From IMG/VR virus record IMGVR_UViG_3300037585_002406: a stretch of DNA of 64,000 bases, one strand, 5' to 3'. Position 1 is the stretch's first letter, and each line of letters opens with the position of its first letter. The notes below the pieces were generated by a model. It saw nothing but the letters and a program-made list of their open reading frames with translations, was not told where the DNA came from and searched no databases. The translations under genes and the position numbers were made by a program. The stretch is from an uncultured virus (IMG/VR IMGVR_UViG_3300037585_002406) (lineage: Duplodnaviria; Heunggongvirae; Uroviricota; Caudoviricetes; Crassvirales). Below, piece by piece: positions 1,675 through 16,158 of this stretch.

Positions 1675-3567
1675 TCATCGCACTGGACAAGCACCGCCTG
1701 CACAATCATCTATTTCTATGTCCTCCATCTTTATATCCTGTATGGATGTAATAGGAGTACATTCCTTCTTCATCTTGTTATATGTTTTCTTATCAATTTC
1801 CTCCAATGGAGCTTGATCGAATCCATGATCATTATGTAATAGAAAGGATACAGATTTTACGTTTGTGTAATTCTCGCGTAACCACGCCTTAATTACATCC
1901 AATTCATCCTTCCTATAGTAAACGGTCACCGACACCGAGTTATCGCTCCATTCGGCCTGTAAACGCTTTATAACCTCTAATTGATCTACTGCTGACATGT
2001 CCCCCGCAAACATAGTTCCTTTCGGGAACTTGCATGGGAAGCTCACAACCACTGTTGAGTGATCATCTGTACCGTCAAAATTTCTTACATATTCTACGCC
2101 GAACCCATTGTTTCTGCACACGCCGACCAACTCGCTATCAGCAGACATTCGTATTCGTCTGATATAGTGTTCCGAGTATCCAGGGTGTGCTCCTGGTGTA
2201 ACGCCAGCAAGTAGACTAAGCGTTCCAGATGGCTTAACTGTTGTAAGTTTAATAGATGCTGGGTATCCTGCGTCTCTAGAGTAAGTTCTATCATATTCAC
2301 GTAGGTAAATATAGCAAATTTCAAGCCAGCTGCGTTGCTCCTCTGTTGCCTGTAGATAACCTGTCACACCTATCCCCATCCTCATATTTTTATGGACGAT
2401 ATCTTCTGTCTCTTTGACAGAACATTTAATAGCGAGGCTGTGTTTATTGATGCGGTACAGGTATCGAGCTACCTTTTTAAGTTCTGTTAATGATTCTATA
2501 TTGGGTAGGTATATCTCCGCAAGACAGCATGTCTCGTATGGGGCTAACGATTGCTCGGCACACGGATTATACCCCATGACATCTGGGTCAGGGTATTGTT
2601 CCTCACCTGTCCTGCCCATACGTCTAGACGAATCAAGATTAATCAATCCATATGGCTCACCATTACCTTTATAACCCTCCCAAAATTCATCTGGCAACTG
2701 ATCTATATCATCACACACAACAGAGTTGTTAGACATTGCTCTCCAGTTAGGGATACCGCCTAGGTCCCAACGCTTAGCACGTAAGTATTCTAAATCATCA
2801 TGATCCCCTAGTGCAATCTGGGCTGAACGCCTAACATTACCAGCAACTACAATCTTTCCTATGATGTTCATAACATCCAGACAATCAATAGGTTGTAGCC
2901 TTTTGTTAGAGCGATTGTTTAAGATAGAATTAATCTCCTGCATACCCCATATAAGATCCTTACTGCCTGATGCGGTACCTCCAAAGCCTTGGATCTTAGA
3001 TCCAGCTGGCCTGATCAGGTGGGTTGCATATGTGAACCCCTCACCAGTTACAAAGCTAGCCTCAAGCACACGCTTAAGTAGTTCAGTCCATCCTTCACGT
3101 GAGTCTGGCACAATGAAGTCAGCGCCGTTGTCATTTACATTTTCTATCTTAACCTTACGTTTAACCTTAGGTAGCTGATACACATGTTCTCTCTGTATGT
3201 TATACCCGACACCGCTTCCAAGCATAAGCATTTCAAACGCCCAAGTAAATGGACGGATAGGTTCATCAACTACAGTAAATGCACAGTTCTGCAGAGAAGG
3301 TAAGCCTAATCTGTCTACAGTTTTTGTGCCAAGCTGCCATAAAAATCTACCAGCAACTGTTCCCTTCAGAGACATCATCATCTTCTTTATCTCCCTCTGA
3401 TCGTATGTATTGAAGTCGCAACCAAGCTGTTTATTACAGGCCTCAACAACCCTATCAACAGTCTGCTCCCACTCCTCTGATCCGTCTTTTGTTGGACGAG
3501 CATACGTTCTTTTATAGGTAGCGTATCCTACCTCCCCCCAAGGGATGTCTTCTGATTTGTGCTTCAT
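1675..3567 (-). CDS. nrdJ: Class II (adenosylcobalamin-dependent) ribonucleotide reductase
   Basis: YKRTYAR, NCAF, GNVRRSA, NPCAE, TTVKPSGT and C-terminal CAGGACP. No small-subunit gene nearby. Confidence 0.92.
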   Translation of the reverse strand: MKHKSEDIPWGEVGYATYKRTYARPTKDGSEEWEQTVDRVVEACNKQLGCDFNTYDQREIKKMMMSLKGTVAGRFLWQLGTKTVDRLGLPSLQNCAFTVVDEPIRPFTWAFEMLMLGSGVGYNIQREHVYQLPKVKRKVKIENVNDNGADFIVPDSREGWTELLKRVLEASFVTGEGFTYATHLIRPAGSKIQGFGGTASGSKDLIWGMQEINSILNNRSNKRLQPIDCLDVMNIIGKIVVAGNVRRSAQIALGDHDDLEYLRAKRWDLGGIPNWRAMSNNSVVCDDIDQLPDEFWEGYKGNGEPYGLINLDSSRRMGRTGEEQYPDPDVMGYNPCAEQSLAPYETCCLAEIYLPNIESLTELKKVARYLYRINKHSLAIKCSVKETEDIVHKNMRMGIGVTGYLQATEEQRSWLEICYIYLREYDRTYSRDAGYPASIKLTTVKPSGTLSLLAGVTPGAHPGYSEHYIRRIRMSADSELVGVCRNNGFGVEYVRNFDGTDDHSTVVVSFPCKFPKGTMFAGDMSAVDQLEVIKRLQAEWSDNSVSVTVYYRKDELDVIKAWLRENYTNVKSVSFLLHNDHGFDQAPLEEIDKKTYNKMKKECTPITSIQDIKMEDIEIDDCAGGACPVR

Positions 3568-3609: not shown

Positions 3610-4113
3610 CTAAATATCCTTCTTGTCAAGTGATTGAGGGTCAATGTACCAATCTCTATAAGGTACTATCTCATAGCTACTTAGCTCCCTAAGATCATGC
3701 AAAGCAAGTAATGTTATCTGATCCTGTCTGTCTTTTCTCTGATATATTTTACGGTATGCATCCTTCTTCCATACCTTCTTGCTAAAGTCTACATTCTTTT
3801 TGCACCACTCAAGCAGATCCTCACGCTCGACTCGTACATAACCTCCAACCTCAACCATTTCGAATGCTATCCATTTTGCTTTACCGAGAAGCCACCCAGC
3901 GTCTCCTCGTACATTTTTAAACTCTACCCAGATCTCATCAGGTAAGTTATTACCCTTGACATCAACACCGTCTTCACCGTGCCAATAATCAACGTGCATT
4001 TTTATATCCTCATCTCTCGATGATTTAACAGCATCTGGACAAGCCCTTTCATAACGGGTCGCAGAAACGCCGCCGTCCCTCCAGGACCGCCTAAGTCTAC
4101 CTTTACTTACCAT
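3610..4113 (-). CDS. Putative PD-(D/E)xK restriction-like nuclease
   Basis: D..HVDY..VDVKG..WVEFKNVRG.GWL pattern. Confidence 0.5.
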   Translation of the reverse strand: MVSKGRLRRSWRDGGVSATRYERACPDAVKSSRDEDIKMHVDYWHGEDGVDVKGNNLPDEIWVEFKNVRGDAGWLLGKAKWIAFEMVEVGGYVRVEREDLLEWCKKNVDFSKKVWKKDAYRKIYQRKDRQDQITLLALHDLRELSSYEIVPYRDWYIDPQSLDKKDI

Positions 4114-4117
4114 AGTA

Positions 4118-4333
4118 TTACAGGTTGTTTATTTCTTTTGCAGCTTCCCTAATAAGATCAAGCTCGATATTCATTGCTTGTCTCAGTTCCAGTATTGCCC
4201 TGTTTATTTTATCCTTATCTGTAATTGGCTCACCTTGTTCGTCATGCATGAAATCATCATAATAGGCGGTCACATGCTCACGCATACGTACACATGCTTT
4301 ACAGTACTGCCAACTAAGTTCTTCCTTCGTCAT
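4118..4333 (-). CDS. Hypothetical protein
   Basis: ORF tightly packed in the operon. Confidence 0.6.
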   Translation of the reverse strand: MTKEELSWQYCKACVRMREHVTAYYDDFMHDEQGEPITDKDKINRAILELRQAMNIELDLIREAAKEINNL

Positions 4334-4769
4334 TTTGAATAGATTTTAGTATTTCATCAACCGCTTGGTCGACCTGTTGTTTATTTCTTGCAAGGTACAC
4401 ATCGTACCCTAAATCATTGTTCATTATATACCCTAAAAATATCTTCCACCGCATCGGAAAATCATGATGAGACGGTAGATATCCTTTGGTCTCTATAATC
4501 CACTTATGATCCTTCCCTACAAAATCAGGAGTGTACCGAATCGGTTGCTGTATTGAGTTGCTACGATCAGACATGAGTTTCTTCTTTGCGGTCATCTTAA
4601 AATACTTATTAGTGAATCTAAAAGAATCCATAAGAGTAAACTGTGTTTCCTCATAGGTAAAACTTATGCCTGATTCACGAAGCTTGTCTGAACAATACTT
4701 CTCAATCGCGGACTTGAATTTTCCTAATGATTTTTTTTTGGGTGCGCGTTTGCGCTTATTTCTTTTCAT
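4314..4769 (-). CDS. Endonuclease I-like / Holliday junction resolvase-like nuclease
   Basis: FKSAIE..YE..YTPDF..IIETKG. Likely start is MKRNK at 4769. Confidence 0.75.
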   Translation of the reverse strand: MKRNKRKRAPKKKSLGKFKSAIEKYCSDKLRESGISFTYEETQFTLMDSFRFTNKYFKMTAKKKLMSDRSNSIQQPIRYTPDFVGKDHKWIIETKGYLPSHHDFPMRWKIFLGYIMNNDLGYDVYLARNKQQVDQAVDEILKSIQNDEGRT

Positions 4770-4809
4770 TGGAGGACAAGTTACAGTCATTCATACTCCC
4801 CTTCCAAAT

Positions 4810-6612
4810 TTATTTTAATAAAATTTCAGAGAAATTTATTGCAGATTGCTTATCTCCCTCAAAATGAATAGGTTCGAATAATCGGTTCCTGGTTTCCCAT
4901 GATGTAAATCCAGTGTGAGATAGGTTCATTAGTAGATTATATGGCTGATCAAATGGTGTAGGCTGACCGCCTGTCTCTACTTCACGCACTTTACGCACGT
5001 GGAACTCACTGAGTTTACGTATGTTATGGTCTGGTGCTTGAACCTTTCGGTGAATAGTAATAAAGCAATCAGCACGGTTAACAAATTTACCGCCTCCCTC
5101 TGTATCCTCAGCAAATGGTGCAATTGGAAGGCCGTCTGGACCTTTACGCCTTTGAGCTTCTGTTACAGCGTGCATGTTTAACCACACAGCTACGTTGTTT
5201 GCTGTTGAATACGTAAGGAACTCACTAGCAGCCTCATAGTGGTAGTCATGTACACCAATACTTGAGTTCTTCATATCTAACTTCAATGAGTTATAAGGAT
5301 CTACGAAGATGGCATCTATTTGTTGTTGCGCCCTAACCTTCTCCATGAAGACTATAATGTCGCTATAACTATACACCTGGTTATTATTGATGATAGTGAA
5401 GTGAGATTGTACCCATTTGTACGCCTGCTTGCGCTGAGCGTATGTCATGTCACCGACCTTACGGTCTGCTGCAAATTGCATAAGTTGCATCTTTACTGAT
5501 GCGGTTCTGTTCTCTGATGAGTATATTAACCACTTCCAATCATGACGAATAGCTGAGTTGGCTATAAGGTACAGCGCTGTAGTTGTCTTACCTACGTTGC
5601 TATGCCCGTTCATGATCACGAACTCTTTCTTGTATCTGAAGTATTCGTCTAATTGTGGATCTCCAGTATCTAAACCTACCTCAATATTACCTTGTGAGAA
5701 GTCATCAATCCATCTGAAGTCCTCATCGTCTGATGATATAAATGACATATCGCCATCGTTAATGAGCATCTGACGCTTAGCTTGTTTCTCTTCGTCAATG
5801 ATCTCACGTATGGGTGCGTTCTTACCGTTCTCGATCATATCTATAATAGTAGCCATAGCATGATCGTCAGACTCTATATCTCTTTTAGATATCTCACGGA
5901 ATAAAACGCGAACCGCCTCTTCTTGTTCCATACGTCCAGCAGCTATGTATCCACCACACAAACGTGCAGCCTTTACAAGAGCTCTATGCTTGTCTCCATC
6001 CTCAGCAGCCCGTATGATACGTGCAGCCAAGTTTAGCTTCATATAGTCTGTATACTTGTATGCCTCGTTTGTAGGTGTCTGAGCCTCAGCAAATTCCGTA
6101 GAGAATGCCCCAAACTTCTTCCATTCATCTTTTATAATAATGTCTGGATCGTGAGATTCGAAACACGCACGAGATTCGTTTATACCAGATTCATCTACCT
6201 CTAAGGTGTATTGCTTATTGAAGTATGTGCACAAGGCACGGAAATGATCTCTATGCCTCTCTGGGTTTGTTATTTGAACAAGCGCCTTAACGCCGTCACC
6301 AGACGGTGATACCCAGCATGAATGGACATAGTTGTCCGTAGCCAGAGCCGTCTTCGTTGCGTCAACATTAACGTGATCAAAGTCCAGAACAATGAATCCG
6401 CTATGTTCGAATAGTGCATCATCATTTCTTGTCGAAAACTCTCCACTAAAACATACAATCGGAAGCTTACGCTTCTTTTCTTTTTCACCATCACGTACTT
6501 GTGCTATGAGAGAACCAGACTTCCCCGACTGTATCCTCTTCAGTGCTGTCTCCAGCTGTATGTGGTGTGGTGCTTCCTTCTCGAAGACGTTCTTGAATAT
6601 TGTTACTTTCAT
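4810..6612 (-). CDS. Primase-helicase (VirE-N/BT4734-like N-terminus plus SF4-like helicase)
   Basis: K.KLP..FSGEF..HSG...LDFDH and SPSGDGVK in the N-terminus. Walker A GHSNVGKT, then VDPYN and KVRE.ETGG. Confidence 0.85.
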   Translation of the reverse strand: MKVTIFKNVFEKEAPHHIQLETALKRIQSGKSGSLIAQVRDGEKEKKRKLPIVCFSGEFSTRNDDALFEHSGFIVLDFDHVNVDATKTALATDNYVHSCWVSPSGDGVKALVQITNPERHRDHFRALCTYFNKQYTLEVDESGINESRACFESHDPDIIIKDEWKKFGAFSTEFAEAQTPTNEAYKYTDYMKLNLAARIIRAAEDGDKHRALVKAARLCGGYIAAGRMEQEEAVRVLFREISKRDIESDDHAMATIIDMIENGKNAPIREIIDEEKQAKRQMLINDGDMSFISSDDEDFRWIDDFSQGNIEVGLDTGDPQLDEYFRYKKEFVIMNGHSNVGKTTTALYLIANSAIRHDWKWLIYSSENRTASVKMQLMQFAADRKVGDMTYAQRKQAYKWVQSHFTIINNNQVYSYSDIIVFMEKVRAQQQIDAIFVDPYNSLKLDMKNSSIGVHDYHYEAASEFLTYSTANNVAVWLNMHAVTEAQRRKGPDGLPIAPFAEDTEGGGKFVNRADCFITIHRKVQAPDHNIRKLSEFHVRKVREVETGGQPTPFDQPYNLLMNLSHTGFTSWETRNRLFEPIHFEGDKQSAINFSEILLK

Positions 6613-6865
6613 TTTCGTTTGCAATCATTAATAGGATCATGTATCCTGCACAATCCATAAGTGTATCTTCTGTCTCATCATTGAGACCTACATTGGCTAT
6701 TCTTTTTAGCTTATCATCAAGTCTTATTCTTATTGCTTCGGACGCTTTAAGAGAAGAAAAAATGCCTACAGGATTCAAAGCTGAATCGCCATAAGCATTG
6801 TTCTTCTTTATAAGCAAGTCCTCAAGCTCAGCGCACTTGAATTGTATTTTCTCTTTTGTGTTCAT
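6491..6865 (-). CDS. Nucleotide-modification-associated domain protein (DUF1599/Nmad1-like)
   Basis: KKNNAYGDS..RLDDKLKRI..DTLMDCAGY. Confidence 0.75.
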   Translation of the reverse strand: MNTKEKIQFKCAELEDLLIKKNNAYGDSALNPVGIFSSLKASEAIRIRLDDKLKRIANVGLNDETEDTLMDCAGYMILLMIANENESNNIQERLREGSTTPHTAGDSTEEDTVGEVWFSHSTST

Positions 6866-7097
6866 CTAGTGTTATTTGTGAGCGTGATAACTCCACACAA
6901 TCCAATATCTCACGTATGATAATTTCTTTATTCTTTGCCTTTGCCGTGAAGTATTTCTGACGAAGGCGGTGCATAGCTCTACTATCGTAACGCATGATAT
7001 CAGATGGCGTGTCGAATACTGTGACTATATACTCAACACGCTCATGTACGACCTTCCGTTTCTTGAAGGCGACACGAGCGTGCAAGTATTTAATCAT
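6828..7097 (-). CDS. Hypothetical protein
   Basis: ORF in the operon; start is uncertain. Confidence 0.5.
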   Translation of the reverse strand: MIKYLHARVAFKKRKVVHERVEYIVTVFDTPSDIMRYDSRAMHRLRQKYFTAKAKNKEIIIREILDCVELSRSQITLDEHKRENTIQVR

Positions 7098-7101
7098 AGG
7101 T

Positions 7102-7410
7102 TTAGAATGGCATGTCACTTGTTACAGCTTCTGCTTCAGCTTTTGCCTGCTTCTCAGCACGCTTAGCCTTAGCTGCCTCACTATTCGGATCGAATACCGA
7201 ACAACATGGCTTACCATTTTTAGACATGAAAAGCTTTACGTATACGTTACCGCCTTGCCCTTCAGCATTGCGCGTAGTCGCAAATTTTTCAATCATTTCT
7301 TTCAACTCGCTGTCCTTAAACTTAACAGACCAACTTGAAAGGTTCCCCTCGTACATACGAGGCTCTTCGCAGTACCCAACGAGTACTGAATCATAACTTT
7401 GATCACTCAT
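7102..7410 (-). CDS. Putative single-stranded DNA-binding protein
   Basis: Small beta-rich protein ending in the acidic-aromatic tail DMPF, next to recombination genes. Confidence 0.6.
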   Translation of the reverse strand: MSDQSYDSVLVGYCEEPRMYEGNLSSWSVKFKDSELKEMIEKFATTRNAEGQGGNVYVKLFMSKNGKPCCSVFDPNSEAAKAKRAEKQAKAEAEAVTSDMPF

Positions 7411-7482
7411 GATACAAATGTATTAATTATTAAAAAGTGTATTGCGTAGATTATTAATAGGTTCCACGCGACCTTACATGTT

Positions 7483-8244
7483 TTATACAATAAATTCTGC
7501 ATAACTGTTCTGTGTTGGTGAGCCTTCGGTTAACCATTCTTTGATGTTACCGACCGCTTCATTAAATTTCATTTCTCCTTTGAATAGTGTTTCGTCTGAA
7601 CACTTAACTAAGGCTGGGTAGAATGGGTAGGCTTTCTCCTGGACGACCCAGTAGTAATCCTTAATTCCAAATACCTCTGTGTATATGTAGGCTTGGATGT
7701 CATAACTCCAGCTGTTTACATCGTAACGGAATTTACTTACGCTACGTGAAGACTTACTGTCTGTTATGAAACCATCCCCCAAGCAATCAAGGAAGCCCCT
7801 GACAGGTACACCGTCAATCTCTTCATTGAATTCTACTTGGTATTGTCCACTGAGATAGCTACTGAGTAGACCACAGGCTTCAAGCCTCTCGATCATCTCA
7901 CTCGCTTTCTTCCAGTCTTCTTGCGTGACGAGCGTTTTCCCCTCATTCTTTTCAGCAATCTCTGCCTTCCATTCTCGATAGCGCTTAGTATTTCTAGGAT
8001 ACTTACCACCAATATCGGCGACAATATCGCCATCATCCAAACGATAAAATTGACCATCTAATTTCTCTGGTTCGAACAGCATCATGTCGTATAGACTACC
8101 AAATGTCAATGCATCTGATTCTTTTCTAAGTTGACCCCTCATGTACATCTCCCAGAGACGCATGTCTCCGAGGGCGTGCTTGATCGAGGAATAAGAAAGG
8201 TGTCCCTTACCTACACTGTCTGTTAATTGTTGTCTTAAATCCAT
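7483..8244 (-). CDS. RecE/exonuclease VIII-like PD-(D/E)xK exonuclease (DUF3799-like)
   Basis: LSYSSIK, FGSLY, RGFLD, DSKS, YDIQAYIY and VQEK.PF motifs. Confidence 0.8.
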   Translation of the reverse strand: MDLRQQLTDSVGKGHLSYSSIKHALGDMRLWEMYMRGQLRKESDALTFGSLYDMMLFEPEKLDGQFYRLDDGDIVADIGGKYPRNTKRYREWKAEIAEKNEGKTLVTQEDWKKASEMIERLEACGLLSSYLSGQYQVEFNEEIDGVPVRGFLDCLGDGFITDSKSSRSVSKFRYDVNSWSYDIQAYIYTEVFGIKDYYWVVQEKAYPFYPALVKCSDETLFKGEMKFNEAVGNIKEWLTEGSPTQNSYAEFIV

Positions 8245-8392
8245 ATCTTAAAATCTCTTATTATATCATCATCAAAATATCCTGCATCGACTTCACCACA
8301 GCTACGACACTTAAAAGCACAGCTATCTGATGTATCTATATACTGTATGTATAAGCATCTGCTACATTGTGCTTCTTCAGTTGAGCCAAACT

Positions 8393-8941
8393 TCATCGTA
8401 CAAACTTCTTAAGTCCAGCTACTTGCTTCTCAGTGAGTTGCTCGCCATATTTAGTTACCACAGAATCAAACGCTTTACGCTTATCTACTGATGCCTTAAT
8501 ATACCCGACCGCTTTATCCATAATATTTTCTAGTGGCTTAGGTGTTTCCTTAACCGCAGATGATGATAGTGATGAATCACTTGATTGCTTAGCAATAGCG
8601 TCCGTCACTTCATTTGCTGATGCGATAGATGTATCAATACCTATACCCATCATAGCAAGAGCTCTACCTATAGCTGATGTTTCGCAGTTCTCTACGTAGC
8701 TTGTCTTGTTAATATGACTAGATGACCTCTCCTCATGTGCATGTCCAGAAGCTATAACGCGCTGATTAGGGTCAGCTATAACACACTTACATACACACAT
8801 CTCTGAATCCAACGCTGTGAATTCTGTTGAGATTGTCCAGTTTTTGTACTCATCTTCCTGACGGAAGAACTTAATACGCTCGTTTACTTCGACGTACTGC
8901 TTGCCACGTATGTTCGTGGTCTTAAATTTATACTTACTCAT
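8393..8941 (-). CDS. Single-strand annealing protein (Sak/Rad52-like)
   Basis: IRGKQYVEVNERI and ENCETSAIGRALA; adjacent to the exonuclease and SSB. Confidence 0.7.
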   Translation of the reverse strand: MSKYKFKTTNIRGKQYVEVNERIKFFRQEDEYKNWTISTEFTALDSEMCVCKCVIADPNQRVIASGHAHEERSSSHINKTSYVENCETSAIGRALAMMGIGIDTSIASANEVTDAIAKQSSDSSLSSSAVKETPKPLENIMDKAVGYIKASVDKRKAFDSVVTKYGEQLTEKQVAGLKKFVR

Positions 8942-8963
8942 TATACATTAAATTATATTGTTG

Positions 8964-8994
8964 CAAATTTACTTATTAAAAATGTTCTAAACAA
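8964..8994 (-). promoter_or_regulatory. Bacteroidetes promoter TTG-N20-TAAATTTG
   Basis: Both -33 and -7 elements lie upstream of the recombination operon. Confidence 0.7.
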
Positions 8995-9371
8995 GATATT
9001 TCTCGTTTAATTTTCAAATACATGCCAAGACTTTGCATCATCTTGACCGCACCTGATTTTATTCCATGCGTTGCTCGCTCGTAGTCTACCTTAAAGGTTT
9101 GCTCTGATCCGAGTAGCTCCTCGATAAGCTCCTCACCCGCATGATTAGATGCGAGCTCATCAAGTAAATCATCCATAGTGGAGGCGGTTACTTCTATGAA
9201 TATATTGACTATATCCTCTGGTGTCCATGTCTTCCACTCGTCATACCCAAACTTCTCGATGTCTATCCTGCACAGATTACCTGCACAATCTACTATCTCA
9301 AAGTCATCATCATCTTCACAATCATGGATGAAGATATCTATGTATCGTAGTGCGTCCTCATCTGTAATCAA
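8976..9371 (-). CDS. Hypothetical acidic protein
   Basis: ORF track; start overlaps the upstream stop. Confidence 0.55.
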   Translation of the reverse strand: MITDEDALRYIDIFIHDCEDDDDFEIVDCAGNLCRIDIEKFGYDEWKTWTPEDIVNIFIEVTASTMDDLLDELASNHAGEELIEELLGSEQTFKVDYERATHGIKSGAVKMMQSLGMYLKIKREISCLEHF

Positions 9372-9547
9372 AATCCGAAGTTTTTACATGTTTCATAAAA
9401 GTTATCTGTTGCAATAACTCTGCTTTGTGTGTCGAGATTCCTATCCTCATATTCTTTTATGAACAGCTTGATAAGATGCATAGCGTCCACATGCTTGGGT
9501 GTTAGTTGCATACTTGGGGGTATTAAAAATTCTGTTGTGTTACTCAT
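9368..9547 (-). CDS. Hypothetical protein (59 aa, MSNTTEF...)
   Basis: Translated manually; coupled to neighbouring ORFs. Confidence 0.5.
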   Translation of the reverse strand: MSNTTEFLIPPSMQLTPKHVDAMHLIKLFIKEYEDRNLDTQSRVIATDNFYETCKNFGF

Positions 9548-9620
9548 CTTTATTTGCTTGATAGGTTAAATAAATAGCACCGACTATATAGAATAGTGCT
9601 ACAGGTATTAGTGTTGTCAT
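9540..9620 (-). CDS. 26-aa hydrophobic peptide (MTTLIPVALFYIVGAIYLTYQANKDE)
   Basis: Translated manually; one transmembrane-like stretch. Confidence 0.45.
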   Translation of the reverse strand: MTTLIPVALFYIVGAIYLTYQANKDE

Positions 9621-9631
9621 GTTAATTAAAT

Positions 9632-9732
9632 TAGTATGAACGAGGGGAATCGAACCCCTCTGCATAACCAAATAAAATGCAGTCAGATCGGGTAGGTACA
9701 TCACTCCCTAGCGGATCTTGCCAGACGCTCAC
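9632..9732 (-). ncRNA. tRNA-like structured RNA 1 (non-canonical)
   Basis: 7-bp acceptor stem GUGAGCG/CGUUCAU, perfect T-arm AGGGG-UUCGAUU-CCCCU, 3' A-CUA. No D-stem or canonical anticodon arm; two internal hairpins. Confidence 0.75.
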
Positions 9733-9743
9733 TAGATATGTCG

Positions 9744-9920
9744 TTACATATCCATTGCATTTAGTATTTCCATTGCCTTATCCATAGCGTAGGTTCGCTG
9801 TTGTGTCATTGTACCGCATACTTGTGGTGTCGGCAGGAATTTACCTCTGTATGATTTATCTCCTCGTTGGATAGCATTAGCCATCTCTCTTTGGTGGTAT
9901 AGTTTCTGTTGTAGTGTCAT
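9744..9920 (-). CDS. Hypothetical protein (58 aa)
   Basis: Translated manually (MTLQQKLYHQ...). Confidence 0.5.
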   Translation of the reverse strand: MTLQQKLYHQREMANAIQRGDKSYRGKFLPTPQVCGTMTQQRTYAMDKAMEILNAMDM

Positions 9921-9952
9921 AATGTGTTATTTTACTTTCATATATCCAACGT

Positions 9953-10189
9953 CTAGTCCTCGACTGACGTACCTGTTTCTGCATCATCGTAAGCATCCTC
10001 TTGAGGATCTTGACTATGCTCTGCTTTATGTAATTCATTTAATTGTTTTGCATATGATTCAGCTATGAATTTCCATTGTACGCATAGCTTTAGCAAGTCA
10101 GACTTACTGTTTGCTTTAAGGGCAGACTTAATCTGCTCCTTAGTCCACCCTTCTAGTGGGTTAAATTCTTGTTCGTTACTCATATTCAT
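9953..10189 (-). CDS. Hypothetical protein
   Basis: ORF track. Confidence 0.55.
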   Translation of the reverse strand: MNMSNEQEFNPLEGWTKEQIKSALKANSKSDLLKLCVQWKFIAESYAKQLNELHKAEHSQDPQEDAYDDAETGTSVED

Positions 10190-10364
10190 CTGCTTTTATA
10201 CCCCATAACATATCACGTGGCATCTCATCGAATACCACCATGCTGTTTCTTTCATCGGGTGCGTTTTGTACTAAGGTCATTGCTTGTTCTCTTGTTAGTG
10301 AGTGGAATAGAATATCCTTATCGAAGTTATCTCTATACACTCGGTATACTGCGTAATTTTTCAT
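10176..10364 (-). CDS. Hypothetical protein
   Basis: Likely start MKNY, preceded by the AAACCAA motif. Confidence 0.55.
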   Translation of the reverse strand: MKNYAVYRVYRDNFDKDILFHSLTREQAMTLVQNAPDERNSMVVFDEMPRDMLWGIKADEYE

Positions 10365-10523
10365 TGTGTTTTGGTTTTTATTTCCCTCCATGTGTCGGGG
10401 TATTCGTCTATTAGTATGCGCTTGAGTGCTTGTAGTTCACTCCAGTTATCTTTGATAACCTTAGCTTGATTCTCAATGGTTGCCTTACAACTGCATGGAT
10501 TACCATCGTCATTAAAAGGACAT

Positions 10524-10874
10524 TCATTCTCCATCATAATAAGTTACTTTATTGTAATCGGTGGTACGATTATGTTCTTTAATAAATTCTACTACTGCTT
10601 TGTATGTAGACGATAGCTTATCCTCTGCTATGAAACATTGAGTTTTACTTATCATCTCTCCGTACTCAGCCTTACCGCCTTGTATGGTGAACACATATCC
10701 TAAGCTCTCTATCTTCTGTACTACGGGCATTAACCAATCCCATGATGTATGGTATTGTAACTCCACCAATTCTCCTTGACCAAACCCCTCTTTAGATTGT
10801 TCAGTCCAATACTTGTTAGGGATGGAACTTTCTAATAAATCCATAAATTCTGCTATTAATATATTGTCTTTCAT
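10524..10874 (-). CDS. Conserved phage early protein (YHTSWDWLMPVV family)
   Basis: NILIAEFM..YHTSWDWLMPVVQKIE..YKAVVEFIK. Likely start at 10874. Confidence 0.6.
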   Translation of the reverse strand: MKDNILIAEFMDLLESSIPNKYWTEQSKEGFGQGELVELQYHTSWDWLMPVVQKIESLGYVFTIQGGKAEYGEMISKTQCFIAEDKLSSTYKAVVEFIKEHNRTTDYNKVTYYDGE

Positions 10875-10875
10875 T

Positions 10876-11109
10876 TTACTTTTCTTTTGTATGTGAATGT
10901 CCTGCGCACACCTCGTCAATGAAGGTGAATATCTCTTGTGTAACCCACTCGGATTGCATTGTCTTATCGAGTATCTCTTGTGCATCTTCATCACTACACT
11001 CGTAGTTCTGCTTCACATCATCAACGTGCCATAGGTTATTGGTGTAAAATCCTCTTGATGCTAACTCATCACGAAGGTCGTTTGAGTCTATGTCTTTTAA
11101 CTTAATCAT
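10876..11109 (-). CDS. Hypothetical protein (W..DDV..DAQEIL family)
   Basis: Similar to 12227-12430 (WSTEDV..EAESIL). Confidence 0.6.
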   Translation of the reverse strand: MIKLKDIDSNDLRDELASRGFYTNNLWHVDDVKQNYECSDEDAQEILDKTMQSEWVTQEIFTFIDEVCAGHSHTKEK

Positions 11110-11125
11110 TGTTATTTGGTTTGAA

Positions 11126-11193
11126 AAGATACCACCACCAAACCTCGCTGGTTAACGGATGGAGGTTTTGCCGTAAACACGTGGCAGTATCTT
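11126..11193 (-). other. Intergenic multi-stem RNA hairpin
   Basis: Nested pairings AAGATAC/GTATCTT, CCAC/GTGG and AAACCTC/GAGGTTT. Confidence 0.6.
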
Positions 11194-11199
11194 AAATTA

Positions 11200-11534
11200 T
11201 TACTTCGTATGTGATTTAATTGCGTGAATAAGGTTCTCTCTTGCTTGTACAGGATCTGATATGACTATACGTACTAGCCATTCAAACTCACCTACTAGCG
11301 ATTCGGTGTCGCACTCATAGAAGTCGTCTATGTACCTTTCCATTTGTTCTTGTATTGTGTAACTCATTTTGATTTGGTTTTTTCTAGTCCTAACTCGTGG
11401 TAAAAATCATACCCACATTCTTGTATTATCTCGTCATCTTTATCGAAGATGTCGTACACTACGCCTTCATCATCAAACTTTATCTGTATGTATGTTCCGT
11501 ATGTGTTTGGTACGTGTATCTTTTTGTATATCAT
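11200..11534 (-). CDS. Two small hypothetical ORFs (11200-11367; 11364-11534)
   Basis: Translated manually; each start is preceded by AAACCAA. Confidence 0.5.
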
Positions 11535-11618
11535 TTTGAATTGGTTTAGTAATTAGTTCTGCTAGTTCGTGCATACTGAATGATGCGAACCCTGATTGTG
11601 TTTCTGGTTTACGTTTAC

Positions 11619-11807
11619 TCATATCATGCAAATGTTTCCGTCTGTATCTATGTAACCCGCATCGATAAGGGCTGATGCAGTTCGTCCGTAGCTACCCTGT
11701 AGCGTCCATGCCATACCATTACTGATTAGTTCAGAGAATAGTTGTAGTATTCCCGTGTCGTCTATATCCCCACATTCGTAGGCAATTATTTTGTCTGTTA
11801 TATCCAT
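11619..11807 (-). CDS. Conserved small phage protein (AYE.G..AWTLQGSYGR family)
   Basis: Recognisable motif IIAYECG..LI.NG.AW.LQG.YGRTA. Confidence 0.65.
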   Translation of the reverse strand: MDITDKIIAYECGDIDDTGILQLFSELISNGMAWTLQGSYGRTASALIDAGYIDTDGNICMI

Positions 11808-11815
11808 GATGTATA

Positions 11816-11965
11816 TTATTTAATTGGTTTATATCTATTGAAATTGTTTACGATTATATCGCACATGCCGTCCATAGCTTGCTCATGAAACTCATAAAGC
11901 AGTACGCCATCAAAGTATGTAAGCAAGTCCTCTTGTATTTGTTCTTGTAATTCTAGTAGTGTCAT
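11816..11965 (-). CDS. Hypothetical protein (49 aa)
   Basis: Translated manually (MTLLELQEQIQEDL...). Confidence 0.45.
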   Translation of the reverse strand: MTLLELQEQIQEDLLTYFDGVLLYEFHEQAMDGMCDIIVNNFNRYKPIK

Positions 11966-12240
11966 CATCTCATATTTTCTGTGTTAAAATCCCATTCGTC
12001 TAGTATGTCAAGCACCTCATCATCTATGCAAGGTGTACCATCGTAGTCTACAAGTTTTCTATCGTCAAACCATAGTCCACCTTCCTCGTGGTGATTCTCA
12101 CCGCCTGTGTCTGTGTCGTATAGTTCGAACCAACCTTGTTGGTCTGCTCCGTCTGTATCTACTGATACCTGTAGGTCGTACTTACGTCTAGTACCTGATG
12201 GATACTCTCTGATAAATTCTATTCTTCTATCGTATTTCAT
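11965..12240 (-). CDS. Hypothetical protein (GGLWF..LVDYDG family)
   Basis: ORF track. Confidence 0.6.
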   Translation of the reverse strand: MKYDRRIEFIREYPSGTRRKYDLQVSVDTDGADQQGWFELYDTDTGGENHHEEGGLWFDDRKLVDYDGTPCIDDEVLDILDEWDFNTENMR

Positions 12241-12430
12241 ATTGTATTTTTTCTCTTATTGTGTCAGCTATTTCTTCGTTAATGAAGTGCATTATAGCTT
12301 CGTTATCCTCAAACGTAGCTATGAGTATGCTCTCGGCTTCCTCTTCGGTTAGCTTCACGTCTAGATGTTCAGCATTAAGCATTACATCCTCAGTACTCCA
12401 CTTGAGTTCGTTTCCGTTATAGTATTTCAT
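12227..12430 (-). CDS. Hypothetical protein
   Basis: AAACCAA upstream; similar to 10876-11109. Confidence 0.6.
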   Translation of the reverse strand: MKYYNGNELKWSTEDVMLNAEHLDVKLTEEEAESILIATFEDNEAIMHFINEEIADTIREKIQYEIR

Positions 12431-12527
12431 TTTGTTTTGGTTTATATTCGTGGTACAAAGTGTTCGTCTTTATTAAGCAGTCCCAATATGTCATGGGTTA
12501 TGTCAGCCATGAACAGGATGTATTGGT

Positions 12528-12752
12528 TTATTCCCATTCTAATTCTAGGTTACTTAACTCACCTTCGCAGTAGCGCACCGCCTCATCTAACGTGAGTGTA
12601 GCAGTATGCCACCCACAGCTGAAACTATGCACCTCGAACTCATTGTCCGACTCTTTGTATAGTTCTTTTGTTGAGCGTAGTATTCCGTTAGAGAATACCA
12701 CATCTCTCATTTCGCCTACTTCCATAGACGTTAGTTGTTCTCGTGTGTTCAT
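12528..12752 (-). CDS. Hypothetical protein
   Basis: ORF track. Confidence 0.55.
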   Translation of the reverse strand: MNTREQLTSMEVGEMRDVVFSNGILRSTKELYKESDNEFEVHSFSCGWHTATLTLDEAVRYCEGELSNLELEWE

Positions 12753-12754
12753 GA

Positions 12755-13027
12755 TTATCCTTTTTCTGATGTGAATCCAAGTTCATCGAATAGTTGCTTA
12801 CCTGACTTGATTTCTTTTGCTTTTACGGATAGCAAGTCAGTATCCATTTGTTGTAGTTCTTGCTCGCCTATCTGCTCCCATATCTCATCGTGTAAGTCTG
12901 AGTGAGGGCTTGTGGTTCGACTGTCGGTTGTTATTACCTCAGCATCAAATGGGCTTATAAAATCGGATACTTCTACCTCGATTGTTGTGGTGTATGTACG
13001 CACCACTTCTATTTCAAATGTTTTCAT
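12755..13027 (-). CDS. Hypothetical protein
   Basis: ORF track; has its own promoter. Confidence 0.6.
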   Translation of the reverse strand: MKTFEIEVVRTYTTTIEVEVSDFISPFDAEVITTDSRTTSPHSDLHDEIWEQIGEQELQQMDTDLLSVKAKEIKSGKQLFDELGFTSEKG

Positions 13028-13069
13028 GATTGATGTATTAATTGGTTTTCGATTGGTTGAATCGGACTG

Positions 13070-13100
13070 CTAAGATAAGGCAAACTATCCACAAATCCAA
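13070..13100 (-). promoter_or_regulatory. Promoter TTG-N20-TATCTTAG (variant -7)
   Basis: Same spacing as the other early promoters; followed by a short 5' hairpin. Confidence 0.6.
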
Positions 13101-13125
13101 ATTTATTTTTCTAATAACGTAGTTA

Positions 13126-13461
13126 TTACTTGTATCTATTGACCTTCTTAGCGTTGTCATCGTAGCAATTCTTTACCACCATATCCAACTGCTCAGCCAC
13201 ATAGCTGATATGCTTTGATGTGGTAGGTGAGTGGTACTCGGTTACGACTAGCGTACCCATATGCTCCCAACCCCAAGCAACGTCGGTATCGTAGCTTTTC
13301 ACTACAATTCTCCAACCATCACTTCCGTTATACTCTTTACGTACTGACAGATTCTGCTTGTACTTAGGTATGCGGATCCGCTTGGTGTGCGGTACGCCCC
13401 ACATATGTCCGTCATCACGATACATTTCGTAGTCGTGGTCTGCTTTTTCTAGTAATCCCAT
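13126..13461 (-). CDS. Hypothetical protein (SY.T.VA..S.TTSKHI family)
   Basis: ORF track; motif seen in phage early genes. Confidence 0.6.
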   Translation of the reverse strand: MGLLEKADHDYEMYRDDGHMWGVPHTKRIRIPKYKQNLSVRKEYNGSDGWRIVVKSYDTDVAWGWEHMGTLVVTEYHSPTTSKHISYVAEQLDMVVKNCYDDNAKKVNRYK

Positions 13462-13472
13462 GTTAATATGCT

Positions 13473-13736
13473 TTATTGATTGTTTTCTAAATTGTCATGG
13501 TATGCGTTAATTGCGTCCATGTCTTTTTGAAAGCTGATGAACTTGAATAGCATCTCGCTCGTCTGCTTCATAGCATCACGCATCCCCTTGCTATCGTGTT
13601 GCATAGCTACGGGACACCAAGACTTAAATTCTAAATCTCTAGCCTTGCGCTCTATTGCGTCAAGTGAATTGTTTTCGAGGAATGATTTTGCCTCAGGAGA
13701 TAGTTTTTCCCCTATGTATAATTCAAAATTTCTCAT
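13473..13736 (-). CDS. Hypothetical protein
   Basis: AAACCAA upstream. Confidence 0.6.
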   Translation of the reverse strand: MRNFELYIGEKLSPEAKSFLENNSLDAIERKARDLEFKSWCPVAMQHDSKGMRDAMKQTSEMLFKFISFQKDMDAINAYHDNLENNQ

Positions 13737-13748
13737 GTTTATTGGTTT

Positions 13749-13898
13749 TTATAGGTTAATATCTAGTTTTGCGCTTTCGCAGAACGCTTCTGCTACCATG
13801 TCCACCGCATCTGCATCTTCACAGCACGAGTAGTAGGCATAGGCTAGTTCGAGTTCCTCAAAGCATAGCCCTCTGAATGGATTGAATATCCTGTTCAT
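13749..13898 (-). CDS. Hypothetical protein (49 aa)
   Basis: Translated manually; AAACCAA upstream. Confidence 0.5.
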   Translation of the reverse strand: MNRIFNPFRGLCFEELELAYAYYSCCEDADAVDMVAEAFCESAKLDINL

Positions 13899-13901
13899 GT
13901 T

Positions 13902-14090
13902 TTATTGGTTTAATTCGTTAATATCTGATTGAATGATGTCATACTGCTCTGCTAAGTAGTGTATTTCTTCATCGTGTATGGCTACACATAGGCTTTCCGA
14001 TACGTTGATGTGTAGTCTACCGTCTATCTCTTCGCTAGGTGTGTCGTGTTGTGCATTTAGGTAGAATGATGCTTTCTGTAAATCTGTCAT
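13902..14090 (-). CDS. Hypothetical protein
   Basis: AAACCAA upstream. Confidence 0.55.
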   Translation of the reverse strand: MTDLQKASFYLNAQHDTPSEEIDGRLHINVSESLCVAIHDEEIHYLAEQYDIIQSDINELNQ

Positions 14091-14527
14091 AGTAATAAAT
14101 CTTTTTGGTTTTTACAATCGTAGATTGCTATCTCTCCACGTTGCTTGGCCTCCCTCGTAGCTATTTCAAGGTTGTACAAGTGTTGCACAAGGTCGAAGTA
14201 TATCTGACCATCGTGTATCCATGTACCTATACCTAGACCAGCAACGAACTTATGCATACGATATGTGTCTTTGTGTTCGTCAAGTAATACGTCATACTTT
14301 TCCCATAGTTCTTTGAACTTAGCGTAGTGGTTGATTGCCCTGCTTGTCCTTTCGTATCTACTTCTGAAGTCAGGGTGATACTCATCTTCGGGCATAGTGG
14401 TTGGTTCAGTTACACCGCCTACGATGTAACCTTCGGTTGGATTGGTAGTTCCGTCCAAAAGGCGTGTAAATCCGCCATCAAGTAGCGTGTCAATATACGC
14501 ACCTCTGATTGTGTGTTCTAGTGTCAT
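14087..14527 (-). CDS. Conserved phage early protein (GGFT..GY.V..G.W..YFD..AIYD)
   Basis: ORF track; motif pattern. Confidence 0.6.
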   Translation of the reverse strand: MTLEHTIRGAYIDTLLDGGFTRLLDGTTNPTEGYIVGGVTEPTTMPEDEYHPDFRSRYERTSRAINHYAKFKELWEKYDVLLDEHKDTYRMHKFVAGLGIGTWIHDGQIYFDLVQHLYNLEIATREAKQRGEIAIYDCKNQKDLLL

Positions 14528-14679
14528 GATTCCGAGTTGATTAAGTCCTCAAGGCGCATCTGCTCATCACATGAGAGCGCATCCCAGTCGGCTGTGTTAG
14601 TAGCTTGGTTGAATGTTAAGCCATCGAATAGGCTACGTACTGCCTGCATACGCAGGTCTTGGATTAATTGATTATCCAT
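14524..14679 (-). CDS. Hypothetical protein (51 aa)
   Basis: Translated manually; AAACCAA upstream. Confidence 0.5.
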   Translation of the reverse strand: MDNQLIQDLRMQAVRSLFDGLTFNQATNTADWDALSCDEQMRLEDLINSES

Positions 14680-14703
14680 GATGTATAGATTTTTGGTTTG
14701 TTA

Positions 14704-14756
14704 AGAGGGTTTATATACACTCTTCATAAATGAAGAGAGTGTATATTAAACCTTCT
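14704..14756. repeat. Long imperfect inverted repeat (~24-bp hairpin)
   Basis: AGAGGGTTTATATACACTCTTCAT-AA-ATGAAGAGAGTGTATATTAAACCTTCT. Confidence 0.8.
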
Positions 14757-14763
14757 AATAGAT

Positions 14764-14866
14764 TAGAGCCTAGAGGAGGAATCGAACCTCCACGCTTTGC
14801 CCCGTTGCGGTGTCGTTACTACGTTTCCTGTGTGCGCTTATCACACTCACACAACTGGCACTAGGC
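14764..14866 (-). ncRNA. tRNA-like structured RNA 2 (non-canonical)
   Basis: Acceptor GCCUAG/CUAGGC, T-arm GGAGG-UUCGAUU-CCUCC, 3' U-CUA. Three internal hairpins replace the D and anticodon arms. Confidence 0.7.
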
Positions 14867-14875
14867 TTGTGGGTG

Positions 14876-15253
14876 TTACGCTGGCTGTGGCGCACCCTCT
14901 CTGAGGGCTTTGCAGTATCTCACTGCATCCTCAACTGACATACCCATCGAACGTAGTTCGCTGAATTCGGGTAACGTGTTCACCTCTGCAACTTCCTTCG
15001 GAATAAAGTTCTCAGCTACGCTGTCCTTAGCTTGTGACTCTTCGAGTCTTTGATTCTTCGGCTTACGCTTAGCCTTCGGCTTGCTTGCCTTACGCTTAGC
15101 CTTTGGCTTTGCCTTAACCTCTTCGAGGTTAGTGACCGCTTCCATTAACTCCTTTAGGAGTTTGATTGCGTTGGCTTTGCGTGCCTTCGTTGGGTTGAAC
15201 TTCGCTTGGTTCACTGCCTTACGGCAGTCTTTGATGTTGATGTCTTTAGACAT
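14876..15253 (-). CDS. Lys/Ala-rich first early protein (histone-like middle region)
   Basis: KAKPKAKRKASKPKAKRKPK. Likely start MSKD, after AAACCAA. Confidence 0.65.
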   Translation of the reverse strand: MSKDINIKDCRKAVNQAKFNPTKARKANAIKLLKELMEAVTNLEEVKAKPKAKRKASKPKAKRKPKNQRLEESQAKDSVAENFIPKEVAEVNTLPEFSELRSMGMSVEDAVRYCKALREGAPQPA

Positions 15254-15297
15254 GATGATTGGTTTTGTGGTTGGCAACATTGCCGAACCGATGACCA

Positions 15298-15328
15298 CAA
15301 AGATAGGGGATTAAAACAGTGATGTCAA
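15298..15328 (-). promoter_or_regulatory. Leftward early promoter TTG-N20-TATCTTTG
   Basis: Full Bacteroidetes consensus; 5' hairpin at ~15270-15290. Confidence 0.75.
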
Positions 15329-15386
15329 GTTTTATGGCAACTAATTACATGCGCCTTTTACCGAAGGTAAAACACCCGCGATAATT

Positions 15387-15477
15387 CGCGTGTGTGTGAT
15401 CGTGTGTGTGCGTGCATGCATGCGTGTGTTGTGCGTGTGTGTGTGCGTGCGTATCCCGTGCGTACACGCGTGGTGTG
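15387..15477. repeat. Alternating purine-pyrimidine (GT/GC) low-complexity tract
   Basis: cgcgtgtgtgtgatcgtgtgtgtgcgtgcatgcatgcgtgtgttgtgcgtgtgtgtgtgcgtgcgt... Confidence 0.9.
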
Positions 15478-15887
15478 AGCCTGATGCGAGAGCGTAATGC
15501 GGATGCGGATTAGAGTATATGTTTAAGTCTTCTAGGTTAGGGGTGTGATTGTCATGCACTTGCGTAGAACTGCGCTCCATCGTGCGTAATCCCAAGGCGG
15601 TTAAACAATGGCTTTAACTTCGTTGCCTTAAGACTTTCGGTATCAGCAAGTTAGCGTCGGGGATATGGGTGGCACCCGTACCCCCATGCGAAGGGGGGGA
15701 TGTCAAATTCTGCGTTTTCCTCACGTATGTATGCGCCCACAGATACATATAATCCCCTCCCTAAACATTTCTAACCGATTTTTCCAGGGGGATCCGTATT
15801 TTTTTTACGATGGTTATACCCCCTTCCTACCCTAAAGCATTGAGAGGCGGTTAATTAGAGCATTTTGCTTAAATAATAGCTTTACTA

Positions 15888-15918
15888 TTGACTTTTAAAA
15901 AAATATGTTATACCTTTG
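15888..15918 (+). promoter_or_regulatory. Rightward promoter TTG-N20-TACCTTTG
   Basis: Full -33/-7 consensus. Confidence 0.7.
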
Positions 15919-16146
15919 CTATATCTATAGGATGCATATCAAAGCTAGTCTAGATGATTTTAGTGTGTATACACAATAAAGCATTTAGAATGTTAAATAC
16001 GGTATAGCTGTATCATGATTGTAAAGAAGAAAGAAGGGTATTATGTTATATCTAGGGAGAGAAAGAGTTTAGGCGGTCCTTATGGATCTCGTCTTGCTGC
16101 TCTGAGGAGATTAAAACAGGTAGAATTTTACAAACAAAAGAAGTAG

Positions 16147-16154
16147 TATATTTG
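16147..16154 (+). promoter_or_regulatory. -7 element TATATTTG, 4 nt before ATG (further copies at 24072, 26651, 33950, 39394, 41150, 43507, 54375, 57148)
   Basis: Exact TAnnTTTG at gene starts throughout the late region. Confidence 0.75.
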
Positions 16155-16158
16155 CCTT

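Follow-up and report, generated by a model that had tools for sequence, protein, structure and literature searches.

A conserved tRNA-shaped RNA gene at the downstream end of the early-gene block in a marine phage group

The early-region locus and the parts of the element

We analyzed a 64,000-nucleotide stretch of DNA (the window) from an uncultured virus of the Crassvirales, IMG/VR record IMGVR_UViG_3300037585_002406, in which a transfer RNA (tRNA)-like RNA gene lies at 9732-9635 on the minus strand. The genome has a leftward arm, running from about 16 kb down to position 1, and a rightward structural arm. Many small open reading frames (ORFs) open the leftward arm and are followed by genes for an exonuclease, a primase/helicase, an endonuclease and a ribonucleotide reductase. 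The element occupies a 123-nt gap between the stop codon of ORF 9920-9744 and the ATG at 9620, which begins a small hydrophobic ORF (MTTLIPVALF...). Its position is constant in the family described below: on the early strand, it closes the small early-gene block and precedes the replication genes.

On the minus strand, 9732-9635 reads GUGAGCG UCUGGCA AGAUC C G C UAGG GAGUGAUGUA CCUA C C C GAUCU GA CUGCAU UUUAUUUGGUU AUGCAG AGGGG UUCGAUU CCCCU CGUUCAU A. Its parts are as follows; the scores refer to the covariance model R1 and the alignment of the next section.

9635..9732, minus strand: tRNA-like RNA gene, 98 nt with the discriminator A9635; R1 93.5 bits, E 1e-21
9726..9732, minus strand: 5' strand of the acceptor stem, GUGAGCG, pairing with CGUUCAU (9642-9636); 7 bp including two G.U
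9719..9725, minus strand: linker J1, UCUGGCA, in place of a D arm
9685..9718, minus strand: P2-P3 arm, which replaces the anticodon arm; P2 AGAUC/GAUCU, P3 UAGG/CCUA, loop GAGUGAUGUA
9660..9682, minus strand: P4 hairpin, CUGCAU-UUUAUUUGGUU-AUGCAG, adjoining the T arm; loop complementary to AACCAAAUAAA
9643..9659, minus strand: T arm, AGGGG-UUCGAUU-CCCCU; four modelled pairs 100% paired, two altered on both sides

A reading of this DNA made earlier from its letters and ORF translations (the sequence-only reading) had described an acceptor stem and a T-arm without an anticodon arm, and a hairpin next to the T-arm. Each of these can be read directly from the minus strand, with the hairpin at 9682-9660. 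The T arm has the 5-bp stem and the UUCRANY loop of canonical tRNA (RF00005), and the 7-bp acceptor stem joins the two ends of the RNA as in such tRNA. An anticodon arm with a 7-nt loop is absent from the element, and so is a D arm: the bases needed for a D stem are used by P2, which covaries, and only the 7-nt linker UCUGGNN is left. CCA is not encoded; CUAA comes next at the 9635 end, and the discriminator base of the family is A, sometimes U. The acceptor stem, the P2-P3 arm, the P4 hairpin and the T arm form a four-way junction with a GG-containing linker. Columns U8, U10, G11 and G12 of J1 were invariant in a 13-sequence seed alignment, and UYUGG was present in nearly all of the 65 variants introduced below. 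In the structural model, U8-C9 may pair with the GA of a conserved GAC at 9682-9684; GUU/AAC, a compensatory version of these predicted GUC/GAC pairs, was seen in two related loci (L085 and L092).

The element is not a tRNA, because it has no D arm and no anticodon loop. Nor is it a transfer-messenger RNA (tmRNA), because pair 3-70 (columns 3 and 138) is G-C in 64 of 64 alignment rows, with no G3.U70, and there is no tag frame. It resembles the class II tRNAs (Leu, Ser, Tyr, Sec) in its long extra arm directly 5' of the T arm, but it differs from class II and D-armless tRNAs: there is no D stem, a 7-nt anticodon loop on a 5-bp stem is missing too, and the P4 loop has 11-19 nt. ARAGORN found no tRNA or tmRNA gene in the 64-kb window.

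Comparison with relatives

Nothing in Rfam matched the element in the window at the gathering score. When 9500-9900 was searched at E values up to 10, RF00005 was still absent; matches were obtained with the variable arm and T arm of tRNA-Sec (13.2 bits, E 9.9), the sole Rfam alignment to cover P4, and with the T arm only of permuted tmRNA (12.7 bits). A blastn comparison of 9300-10100 with 50,697 phage records gave no match, an exact 30-mer had 0 hits in the IMG/VR collection, which does not contain the window, and full-text searches of the literature returned no paper on this RNA family or on the AAACCAA motif described below. The family is undescribed in Rfam and in the papers found by full-text searches. 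The fold of the single sequence was unremarkable (z -1.14; 25 of 200 shuffles were as good), so the case for a structured RNA rests on comparison with relatives.

The neighbouring 182-aa gene had relatives at 595 of 600 candidate IMG/VR places, and the best 80 were kept as related loci. R1, which was built by a T-loop search followed by the 13-sequence seed alignment, matched the window and 15 of these 80 loci at 69.6-111.1 bits, and a scan with a degenerate pattern gave 20 IMG/VR contigs and 96 metagenome stretches (80 loci listed). There were 65 distinct variants of 94-122 nt, from marine viral and metagenome contigs; L157 was identical to the window element.

In a model-based alignment of 64 rows, which takes in the Leuconostoc row discussed below, 97.9% of cells were in standard pairs as compared with 87.9% in shuffles, and 11 of 19 pairs were altered on both sides; 0 of 500 shuffles reached the observed values. 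Sliding the 3' partners, as a control, left 47-66% paired. All seven acceptor pairs were 100% paired in the 64 rows, pair 6 being UA in 38, CG in 24 and UG in 2, and G1.U and G5.U occurred in the window variant and L157 only. All five P3 pairs were altered on both sides across the alignment, as were all three modelled pairs of the P4 stem, which is 3-6 bp long and exists in the versions CUGC/GCAG, CUAC/GUAG, CGC/GCG and CUACG/CGUAG. P2 covaried between clades (AGAUC/GAUCU, GCACG/CGUGC, UAUGCA/UGCAUA, UCGGUC/GACCGA). It was added by clade-wise RNAalifold analysis, in which 26 sequences gave 32 pairs and another 26 gave 25 pairs, with 9 compensatory in each case. Although the P4 stem covaries, its loop, a U run followed by UGGUU, retained UGGUU in all 65 variants. 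The P3 loop is 6-10 nt long and kept the hexamer GUGAUG in most variants, and the larger variants carry in the P2-P3 arm an extra side hairpin, or an internal loop with a second UUUGGU. Judged by this comparison of sequences, the structured RNA is real and conserved.

The same alignment bears on the idea of a functionless relic, either a tRNA gene in decay or an attachment-site fragment derived from a tRNA. Such a relic would fit the failure of ARAGORN and Rfam to call the element and its absence from close relatives, and ARAGORN calls two homologues of 96-97 nt 'tRNA-Gln'. However, compensatory changes were found in every helix, and the loops were invariant across the 65 variants. As for an attachment site, both acceptor strands are present and covarying, and there was no integrase among the 46 ORFs scanned with Pfam and the 17 scanned with PHROGs. 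We regard this explanation as very improbable.

A pattern scan of genomes from 185,579 species gave a single match, a Leuconostoc contig (L201). It was rejected as a member of the family, with an R1 score of 27.5 bits, no conserved loops and a negative ARAGORN result. Its 101-nt sequence at 3001-3101, which combines a T arm (GCAGG-UUCGAGU-CCUGC) with an acceptor-like stem (GUGAGUG/CAUUCAU), may be a further tRNA-like gene of the non-decoding kind, perhaps one carried by a prophage.

The window primase/helicase had its nearest match in the primase/helicase of Maribacter phage Panino, with 34% identity across 95% of the length, and the primase/helicases of Cellulophaga and Flavobacterium phages were more distant relatives. 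Parts of 9000-11000 were contained in 24 sequencing runs, all labelled marine or viral metagenomes. The element is an accessory gene in a marine phage group with proteins resembling those of Flavobacteriia phages.

The early-gene start motif and the conserved loops

AAACCAA occurs 22 times in the window, where 10.8 occurrences are expected and 2 of 100 shuffles reach 22. Thirteen of the 22 lie on the minus strand within 10371-15265, and none was found on the opposite strand of the early-block region (window 4001-16200).

10371..15265, minus strand: early-gene block with AAACCAA-N(5-16)-AUG, 13 AAACCAA sites
First bases of these sites (5' A, minus strand): 15265, 14699, 14111, 13911, 13748, 13048, 12529, 12443, 11830, 11547, 11380, 11122, 10377

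At 12 of the 13 sites, an ATG opening an ORF of 49-125 codons follows 5-16 nt after the motif, with a gap of 6 nt at 6 of the 12. The statement of the sequence-only reading that the early genes of this strand share a start motif was thus borne out, and the four start regions it had cited (ATG 11109, 11367, 12430 and 13736) are as it had read them. In five related loci (L081, L086, L091, L092 and L099), the coding strand contains 6-18 copies of AAACCA upstream of the element and at most one downstream, for example 18 versus 1 in L086 and 17 versus 1 in L099. AAACCAA-N(5-16)-AUG is a clear strand-specific initiation signal. The likely hosts are described as using no Shine-Dalgarno pairing (PMC6847099, PMC9976891).

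Two minus-strand start codons, ATG 15748 and ATG 4790, have Shine-Dalgarno-like purine runs (GGGAGGGGAUUAUAUG and GGAAGGGGAGUAUGAAUG), unlike the AAACCAA genes. Many joints in metagenome contigs compared with window 10174-14712 skip 78-1684 bases, which amounts to variation in gene cassettes; between the two sides of the 13027/14712 joint, the letters include the AAACCAA motif in reverse complement. The motif may also be a recombination point between early-gene cassettes.

The segment CAUUUUAUUUGGUU of the P4 hairpin is the reverse complement of AACCAAAUAAAAUG, in agreement with the sequence-only reading, which had matched the loop to the start consensus and proposed that it pairs with about 12 early mRNAs for coordinated repression, or for ribosome recruitment. 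In a refined form, this explanation holds that a C4-like antisense RNA is released from the end of the early transcript by ribonuclease P (RNase P) and ribonuclease Z (RNase Z) and masks the early initiation regions. The P4 loop (..UUUGGUU..) would pair with AAACCAA(A/U), 5-16 nt upstream of about 12 early start codons; for the P3 loop GUGAUGUA, (U)ACAUCAU within the start context ACAUCAUG is a possible partner, and early translation would be shut off or otherwise tuned as the RNA accumulates. We hold it tentatively, as a possibility that falls well short of probable.

Apart from the placement of the motif before ORF starts and the invariance of UGGUU over a covarying stem, several observations favour such pairing. 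The loop region matches the start regions of ATG 11109 and ATG 11367 over 14 nt with one bulge, AUG included. In genomes with a U-type loop, the base after AAACCA in the start regions was A in 114 cases, T in 3, C in 6 and G in 1, whereas in genomes with an A-type loop (AUGGUU) it was T in 9 and A in 5. This association between loop base and motif base was seen over all genomes (Fisher p=1.7e-8, phylogeny ignored), and it was also seen within the one clade that has both loop types (9 T/5 A versus 3 T/19 A/3 C; Fisher p=0.003, phylogeny again ignored). Two orthologous start regions switched together with the loop (L081 versus L144, and the window versus L081). The second UUUGGU in the P2-P3 arm of some variants points the same way, and so does the density of the motif, which averaged 4.5 per ~4 kb with the element (n=8) and 1.45 without it (n=38).

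The P3 loop gave a parallel set of observations. GUGAUG(UA) is complementary to (UA)CAUCAU, which belongs to the recurrent start context ACAUCAUG. CATCATG had a strand bias of 55 to 7, and it occurred 0.74 times per kb in GUGAUG-loop genomes and 0.17-0.32 times elsewhere, in a count in which one genome was mis-binned. AACCA lay within 32 nt upstream at 25 of 68 CATCATG sites, compared with about 5% expected. Furthermore, the order of the loops, P3 and then P4, is compatible with antiparallel pairing to the order of the two start motifs.

Other results argue against pairing with the start regions. In counts of RNAduplex sites over the early region, the P4 loop was no better than shuffled loops (32-68 of 100 did as well), and the P3 loop was equalled by 11-17 of 100 shuffles. 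Contiguous matches were marginal: 5 of 19 early start regions had a loop match of at least 7 nt as compared with a shuffle mean of 2.07 (P=0.09), 12 of 19 had one of at least 6 nt (P=0.03), and 4 of 20 other start regions also matched over at least 7 nt. When loops were swapped among 20 genomes, a test confounded by unequal loop lengths and by G-C closing pairs, the own loop ranked first in 3 and tenth or worse in 9. Duplexes between loop and motif are weak, at about -7 to -10 kcal/mol, and rich in A/U; several orthologous start regions deviate from the loop type. The motif also survives in relatives that lack the RNA, with 12 and 3, and 10 and 3, AAACCA on the plus and minus strands in about 12 kb. 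Moreover, AUUGGUUA resembles the D-loop consensus of tRNA, and docking on the T loop could be what keeps its GG constant.

L096, L133 and L121, which form one clade, are instructive on the claim that the loop co-varies with its own start motif. Here the recurrent start context is (A)ACUAAACACA-AUG instead of AAACCAA; among the starts listed for each genome, ACUAAACACA-AUG was found at 2 of 14, 4 of 20 and 2 of 13, and AAACCAA preceded one. The loop nevertheless retains UUGGUU, although the single AAACCAA start region of L096 pairs with the opened P4 at -18.3 kcal/mol. Co-variation was seen in the preference of AUGGUU genomes for AAACCAU and was missing in this clade, a mismatch of the kind that the sequence-only reading had said would refute its model. 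Likewise, of the proposed pairing with about 12 mRNAs, the invariant UGGUU and the A/U co-switch stood, whereas the energy, swap and shuffle tests were null or marginal. On these results, early shut-off by loop pairing is less likely than not.

Two further uses of the loops were considered and rejected. Pairing of UGGUU inside the same RNA would need an AACCA, and none was seen by eye in the element sequences. A box C/D or k-turn reading of GUGAUG with CUGA is contradicted by the variation of CUGA (UUGA, CCGA, ACGA, UAAC).

The sequence-only reading had itself named a competing explanation, in which the hairpin motif serves a plus-strand ORF. Such an ORF does exist (9677..9787, plus strand, 36 codons), and its ATG 9677 follows AACCAAAUAAA at the natural spacing. 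However, an ATG no more than 11 nt after the antisense AACCA was present in only 10 of the 65 variants, where the ORFs had 9-64 codons, and most variants read ..AAAAGCA at the place of the ATG. We therefore give this explanation next to no weight.

That the loops stay invariant in a clade with another start motif would also suit contacts with a protein, or tertiary contacts. The element could be a mimic of a tRNA or of the tRNA-like domain (TLD) of tmRNA, binding a host protein that recognizes the tRNA shape, with the loops as protein contacts; proposed targets are SmpB (blocking trans-translation), an aminoacyl-tRNA synthetase, a modification enzyme or a tRNA-directed defence nuclease. Its plan is similar to the TLD: an acceptor stem and a T arm, a D arm cut down to a GG linker, a long helix and no anticodon stem-loop in the place of the anticodon arm, and GAC beside the 3' domain. 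In one large clade J1 is UCUGGAUUCG, and one real tmRNA used for comparison has the 5' end GGGGUCG-UUUUUGGAAUUCGAC and ..GGAC beside the T arm. Mycobacteriophage DS6A has a TLD-only tmRNA-like gene, and a similar molecule is reported in the same source to act such that it 'strongly inhibits tmRNA, perhaps by titrating SmpB' (PMC4131195). Nevertheless, the likeness of J1 to the tmRNA 5' linker is confined to that clade, and the G-C pair at 3-70 is not the G.U required for alanine charging. The P4 arm has no tmRNA counterpart, the 94-122-nt element has no tag frame or pseudoknots, and it was not called by ARAGORN or by the Rfam tmRNA models (RF00023), apart from the T-arm match mentioned above. 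No linked gene for an RNA-related protein was found by Pfam among 46 ORFs of the left arm and the start of the right arm. We judge a mimic of this kind unlikely.

Flanks, probable processing and known systems

Three further features, two of them directly beside the element, lie on the minus strand.

9733..9754, minus strand: P0, a leader hairpin capped by an AACG tetraloop; its last base adjoins the acceptor stem
9620..9634, minus strand: trailer CUAAUUUAAUUAAC plus the first base of the ATG (9620-9618), conserved in many variants
14767..14866, minus strand: second, distantly related tRNA-like element (type 2); R1 19.3 bits, E 0.064

P0 contains the stop codon (9746-9744) of the upstream ORF 9920-9744, and upstream hairpins of other variants often hold such a stop codon too. 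An AACG-loop hairpin of at least 5 bp was present in 29 of 64 distinct upstream flanks (L081-L184), and one more had an AACA loop; with the latter counted, 27 of 30 hairpins ended 0-3 nt from the element. Their stems covary, with 12 distinct strings that group into about six unrelated stem sequences. The trailer begins CUAA.. or CAAA.. across the family.

The type 2 element has the acceptor GCCUAG/CUAGGC, the T arm GGAGG-UUCGAUU-CCUCC, a GUGAUA loop and the trailer CUAAUC; the loop of its hairpin, AACGGGGCAAA, is not complementary to the start motif. Together, the elements at 9732-9635 and 14767-14866 bracket most of the motif-bearing gene block, and an upstream second T-arm element was found 3-5.8 kb away in 8 of 17 loci examined, the window included. 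About 20 nt downstream of the type 2 element there is a near-perfect inverted repeat, UAUACACUCU..AGAGUGUAUA (about 14713-14746), followed by the AAACCAA site that precedes ATG 14679; one site, 15265, lies upstream.

Other loci have tRNA-like elements of their own. L086 (~4.2 kb upstream of its element), L081, L099 and L144 carry mini elements with a covarying 7-bp acceptor (AGCCAAG/CUUGGCU versus AACAUAG/CUAUGUU), a 15-17-nt linker CACACAGGGUGCGA.., a T arm and then CUAAYC. A third kind of tRNA-like gene occurs in the element-less relatives L103 (7475-7522 and 7572-7637) and L104 (5340-5408, minus strand); these match Rfam tRNA at 36.2 and 38.8 bits and have an anticodon loop of just 3-6 nt. 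A hammerhead-like core, CUGAUGAG..CGAAAC, lies ~50 nt upstream of the third-kind genes (Hammerhead_3, 24.4 bits, E 0.004, below the gathering score).

The reading we prefer, with moderate confidence, is that 9732-9635 encodes a conserved non-decoding tRNA-shaped small RNA that is probably excised by RNase P and RNase Z. The element would be co-transcribed within a polycistronic early transcript. The Bacteroidota-type -7 box has the consensus TAnnTTTG, and none was seen by eye in the coding sequence just upstream of the element. Host RNase P would cut at G9732 and RNase Z after A9635, and the two cuts would free a stable RNA of ~98 nt; P0 would then form the 3' end of the early mRNA upstream, and the mRNA downstream would start with a leader of 14 nt. 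Non-tRNA substrates of bacterial RNase P are described as including mRNAs and phage regulatory RNAs (PMC4919922). The two invariant loops would act in trans, with the early start regions as the leading candidate partner; the conserved loops call for such a role.

Several points weigh against excision as the purpose of the element. R1 found no element at E up to 1 in five whole records of relatives, four of them 97-100% complete, and in two element-less relatives the small hydrophobic ORF comes directly after another coding gene. Punctuation by the element is therefore dispensable, given its absence from the four near-complete relatives and the directly adjoining ORFs. A hairpin 0-3 nt before the cleavage site is an unusual leader for RNase P and might hinder cutting. 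The acceptor stem, the T arm and the elbow suffice for RNase P and RNase Z; processing alone leaves the loops GUGAUG and UGGUU unexplained. The sole RNA run among the 24 runs was an oligo-dT run with a 0.05 share of words and 2 small contigs, neither over the element, so it gives no verdict on transcription. Beyond the share we allot to antisense pairing and to a protein mimic, our confidence goes to processing with a putative further partner in trans.

The idea of processing has a model in the mitochondria, where tRNA punctuation serves to cut polycistronic transcripts, and another in the cleavage of bacterial operon mRNAs by RNase P. The element is likewise tRNA-shaped, lies between coding regions and could be used as a cut site by tRNA-processing enzymes; it differs in that its conserved loops suggest more than a cut site.

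For the antisense pairing, the closest comparison is the C4 RNA of phages P1 and P7. The sequence-only reading had known of no described system like the one it proposed, which was too strong a claim: C4, an antisense RNA processed by RNase P, works by that logic (PMC5320573). According to this source, C4 is excised from a longer phage transcript by host RNase P, and its loops a' and b' pair with two short mRNA sites, one partly occluding the ribosome-binding site and the other giving specificity; a difference of 4 nt in loop and target separates C4 of P1 from that of P7 (PMC5320573). The proposed pairing of P3 and P4 with AAACCAW...ACAUCAUG follows the same logic. C4 lacks a T arm and acts on a single operon, in lysogenic immunity. 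For the present element, in contrast, there are ~12 candidate targets, the RNA lies downstream of them, there is no integrase among the ORFs scanned, and Rfam C4 was not matched either at the gathering score in the window or at E up to 10 in 9500-9900.

Coordinated post-transcriptional shut-off of early genes through a motif common to their initiation regions is exerted in T4 by RegB, a nuclease, and RegA, a repressor. The proposed shut-off would resemble this, except that the effectors in T4 are proteins and the proposed effector here is an RNA.

As an object, the element belongs with the phage small RNAs that have tRNA-like ends and no decoding role, the TLD-only gene of DS6A among them. RNAC and RNAD of T4 (species 1 and 2 RNAs) and the stable RNAs of T5 are tRNA-like and lie within tRNA gene clusters. 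The window, by contrast, has 0 tRNA genes, and the element has its own arm plan, with P2-P3 and P4 and no D arm, and a candidate target motif. RNAC and RNAD are described as stable phage RNAs 'of yet unknown functions' (PMC9697503).

Non-decoding tRNA-shaped phage RNAs have thus been known since RNAC and RNAD of T4, with functions still unassigned in that account (PMC9697503). The present family is unusually tractable, with 65 natural variants, a fixed position between early and replication genes, two invariant loops and a concrete candidate partner. If the antisense pairing is true, the element would be an RNA switch for a whole class of early genes in a phage of Shine-Dalgarno-less Bacteroidota hosts and, in its logic, a multi-target relative of the P1/P7 C4 RNA; it would also provide the first assigned function for an anticodon-less phage tRNA-like RNA. 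Whether or not the RNA is involved, AAACCAA-N(5-16)-AUG matters as a start signal in phages whose likely hosts do without Shine-Dalgarno pairing.

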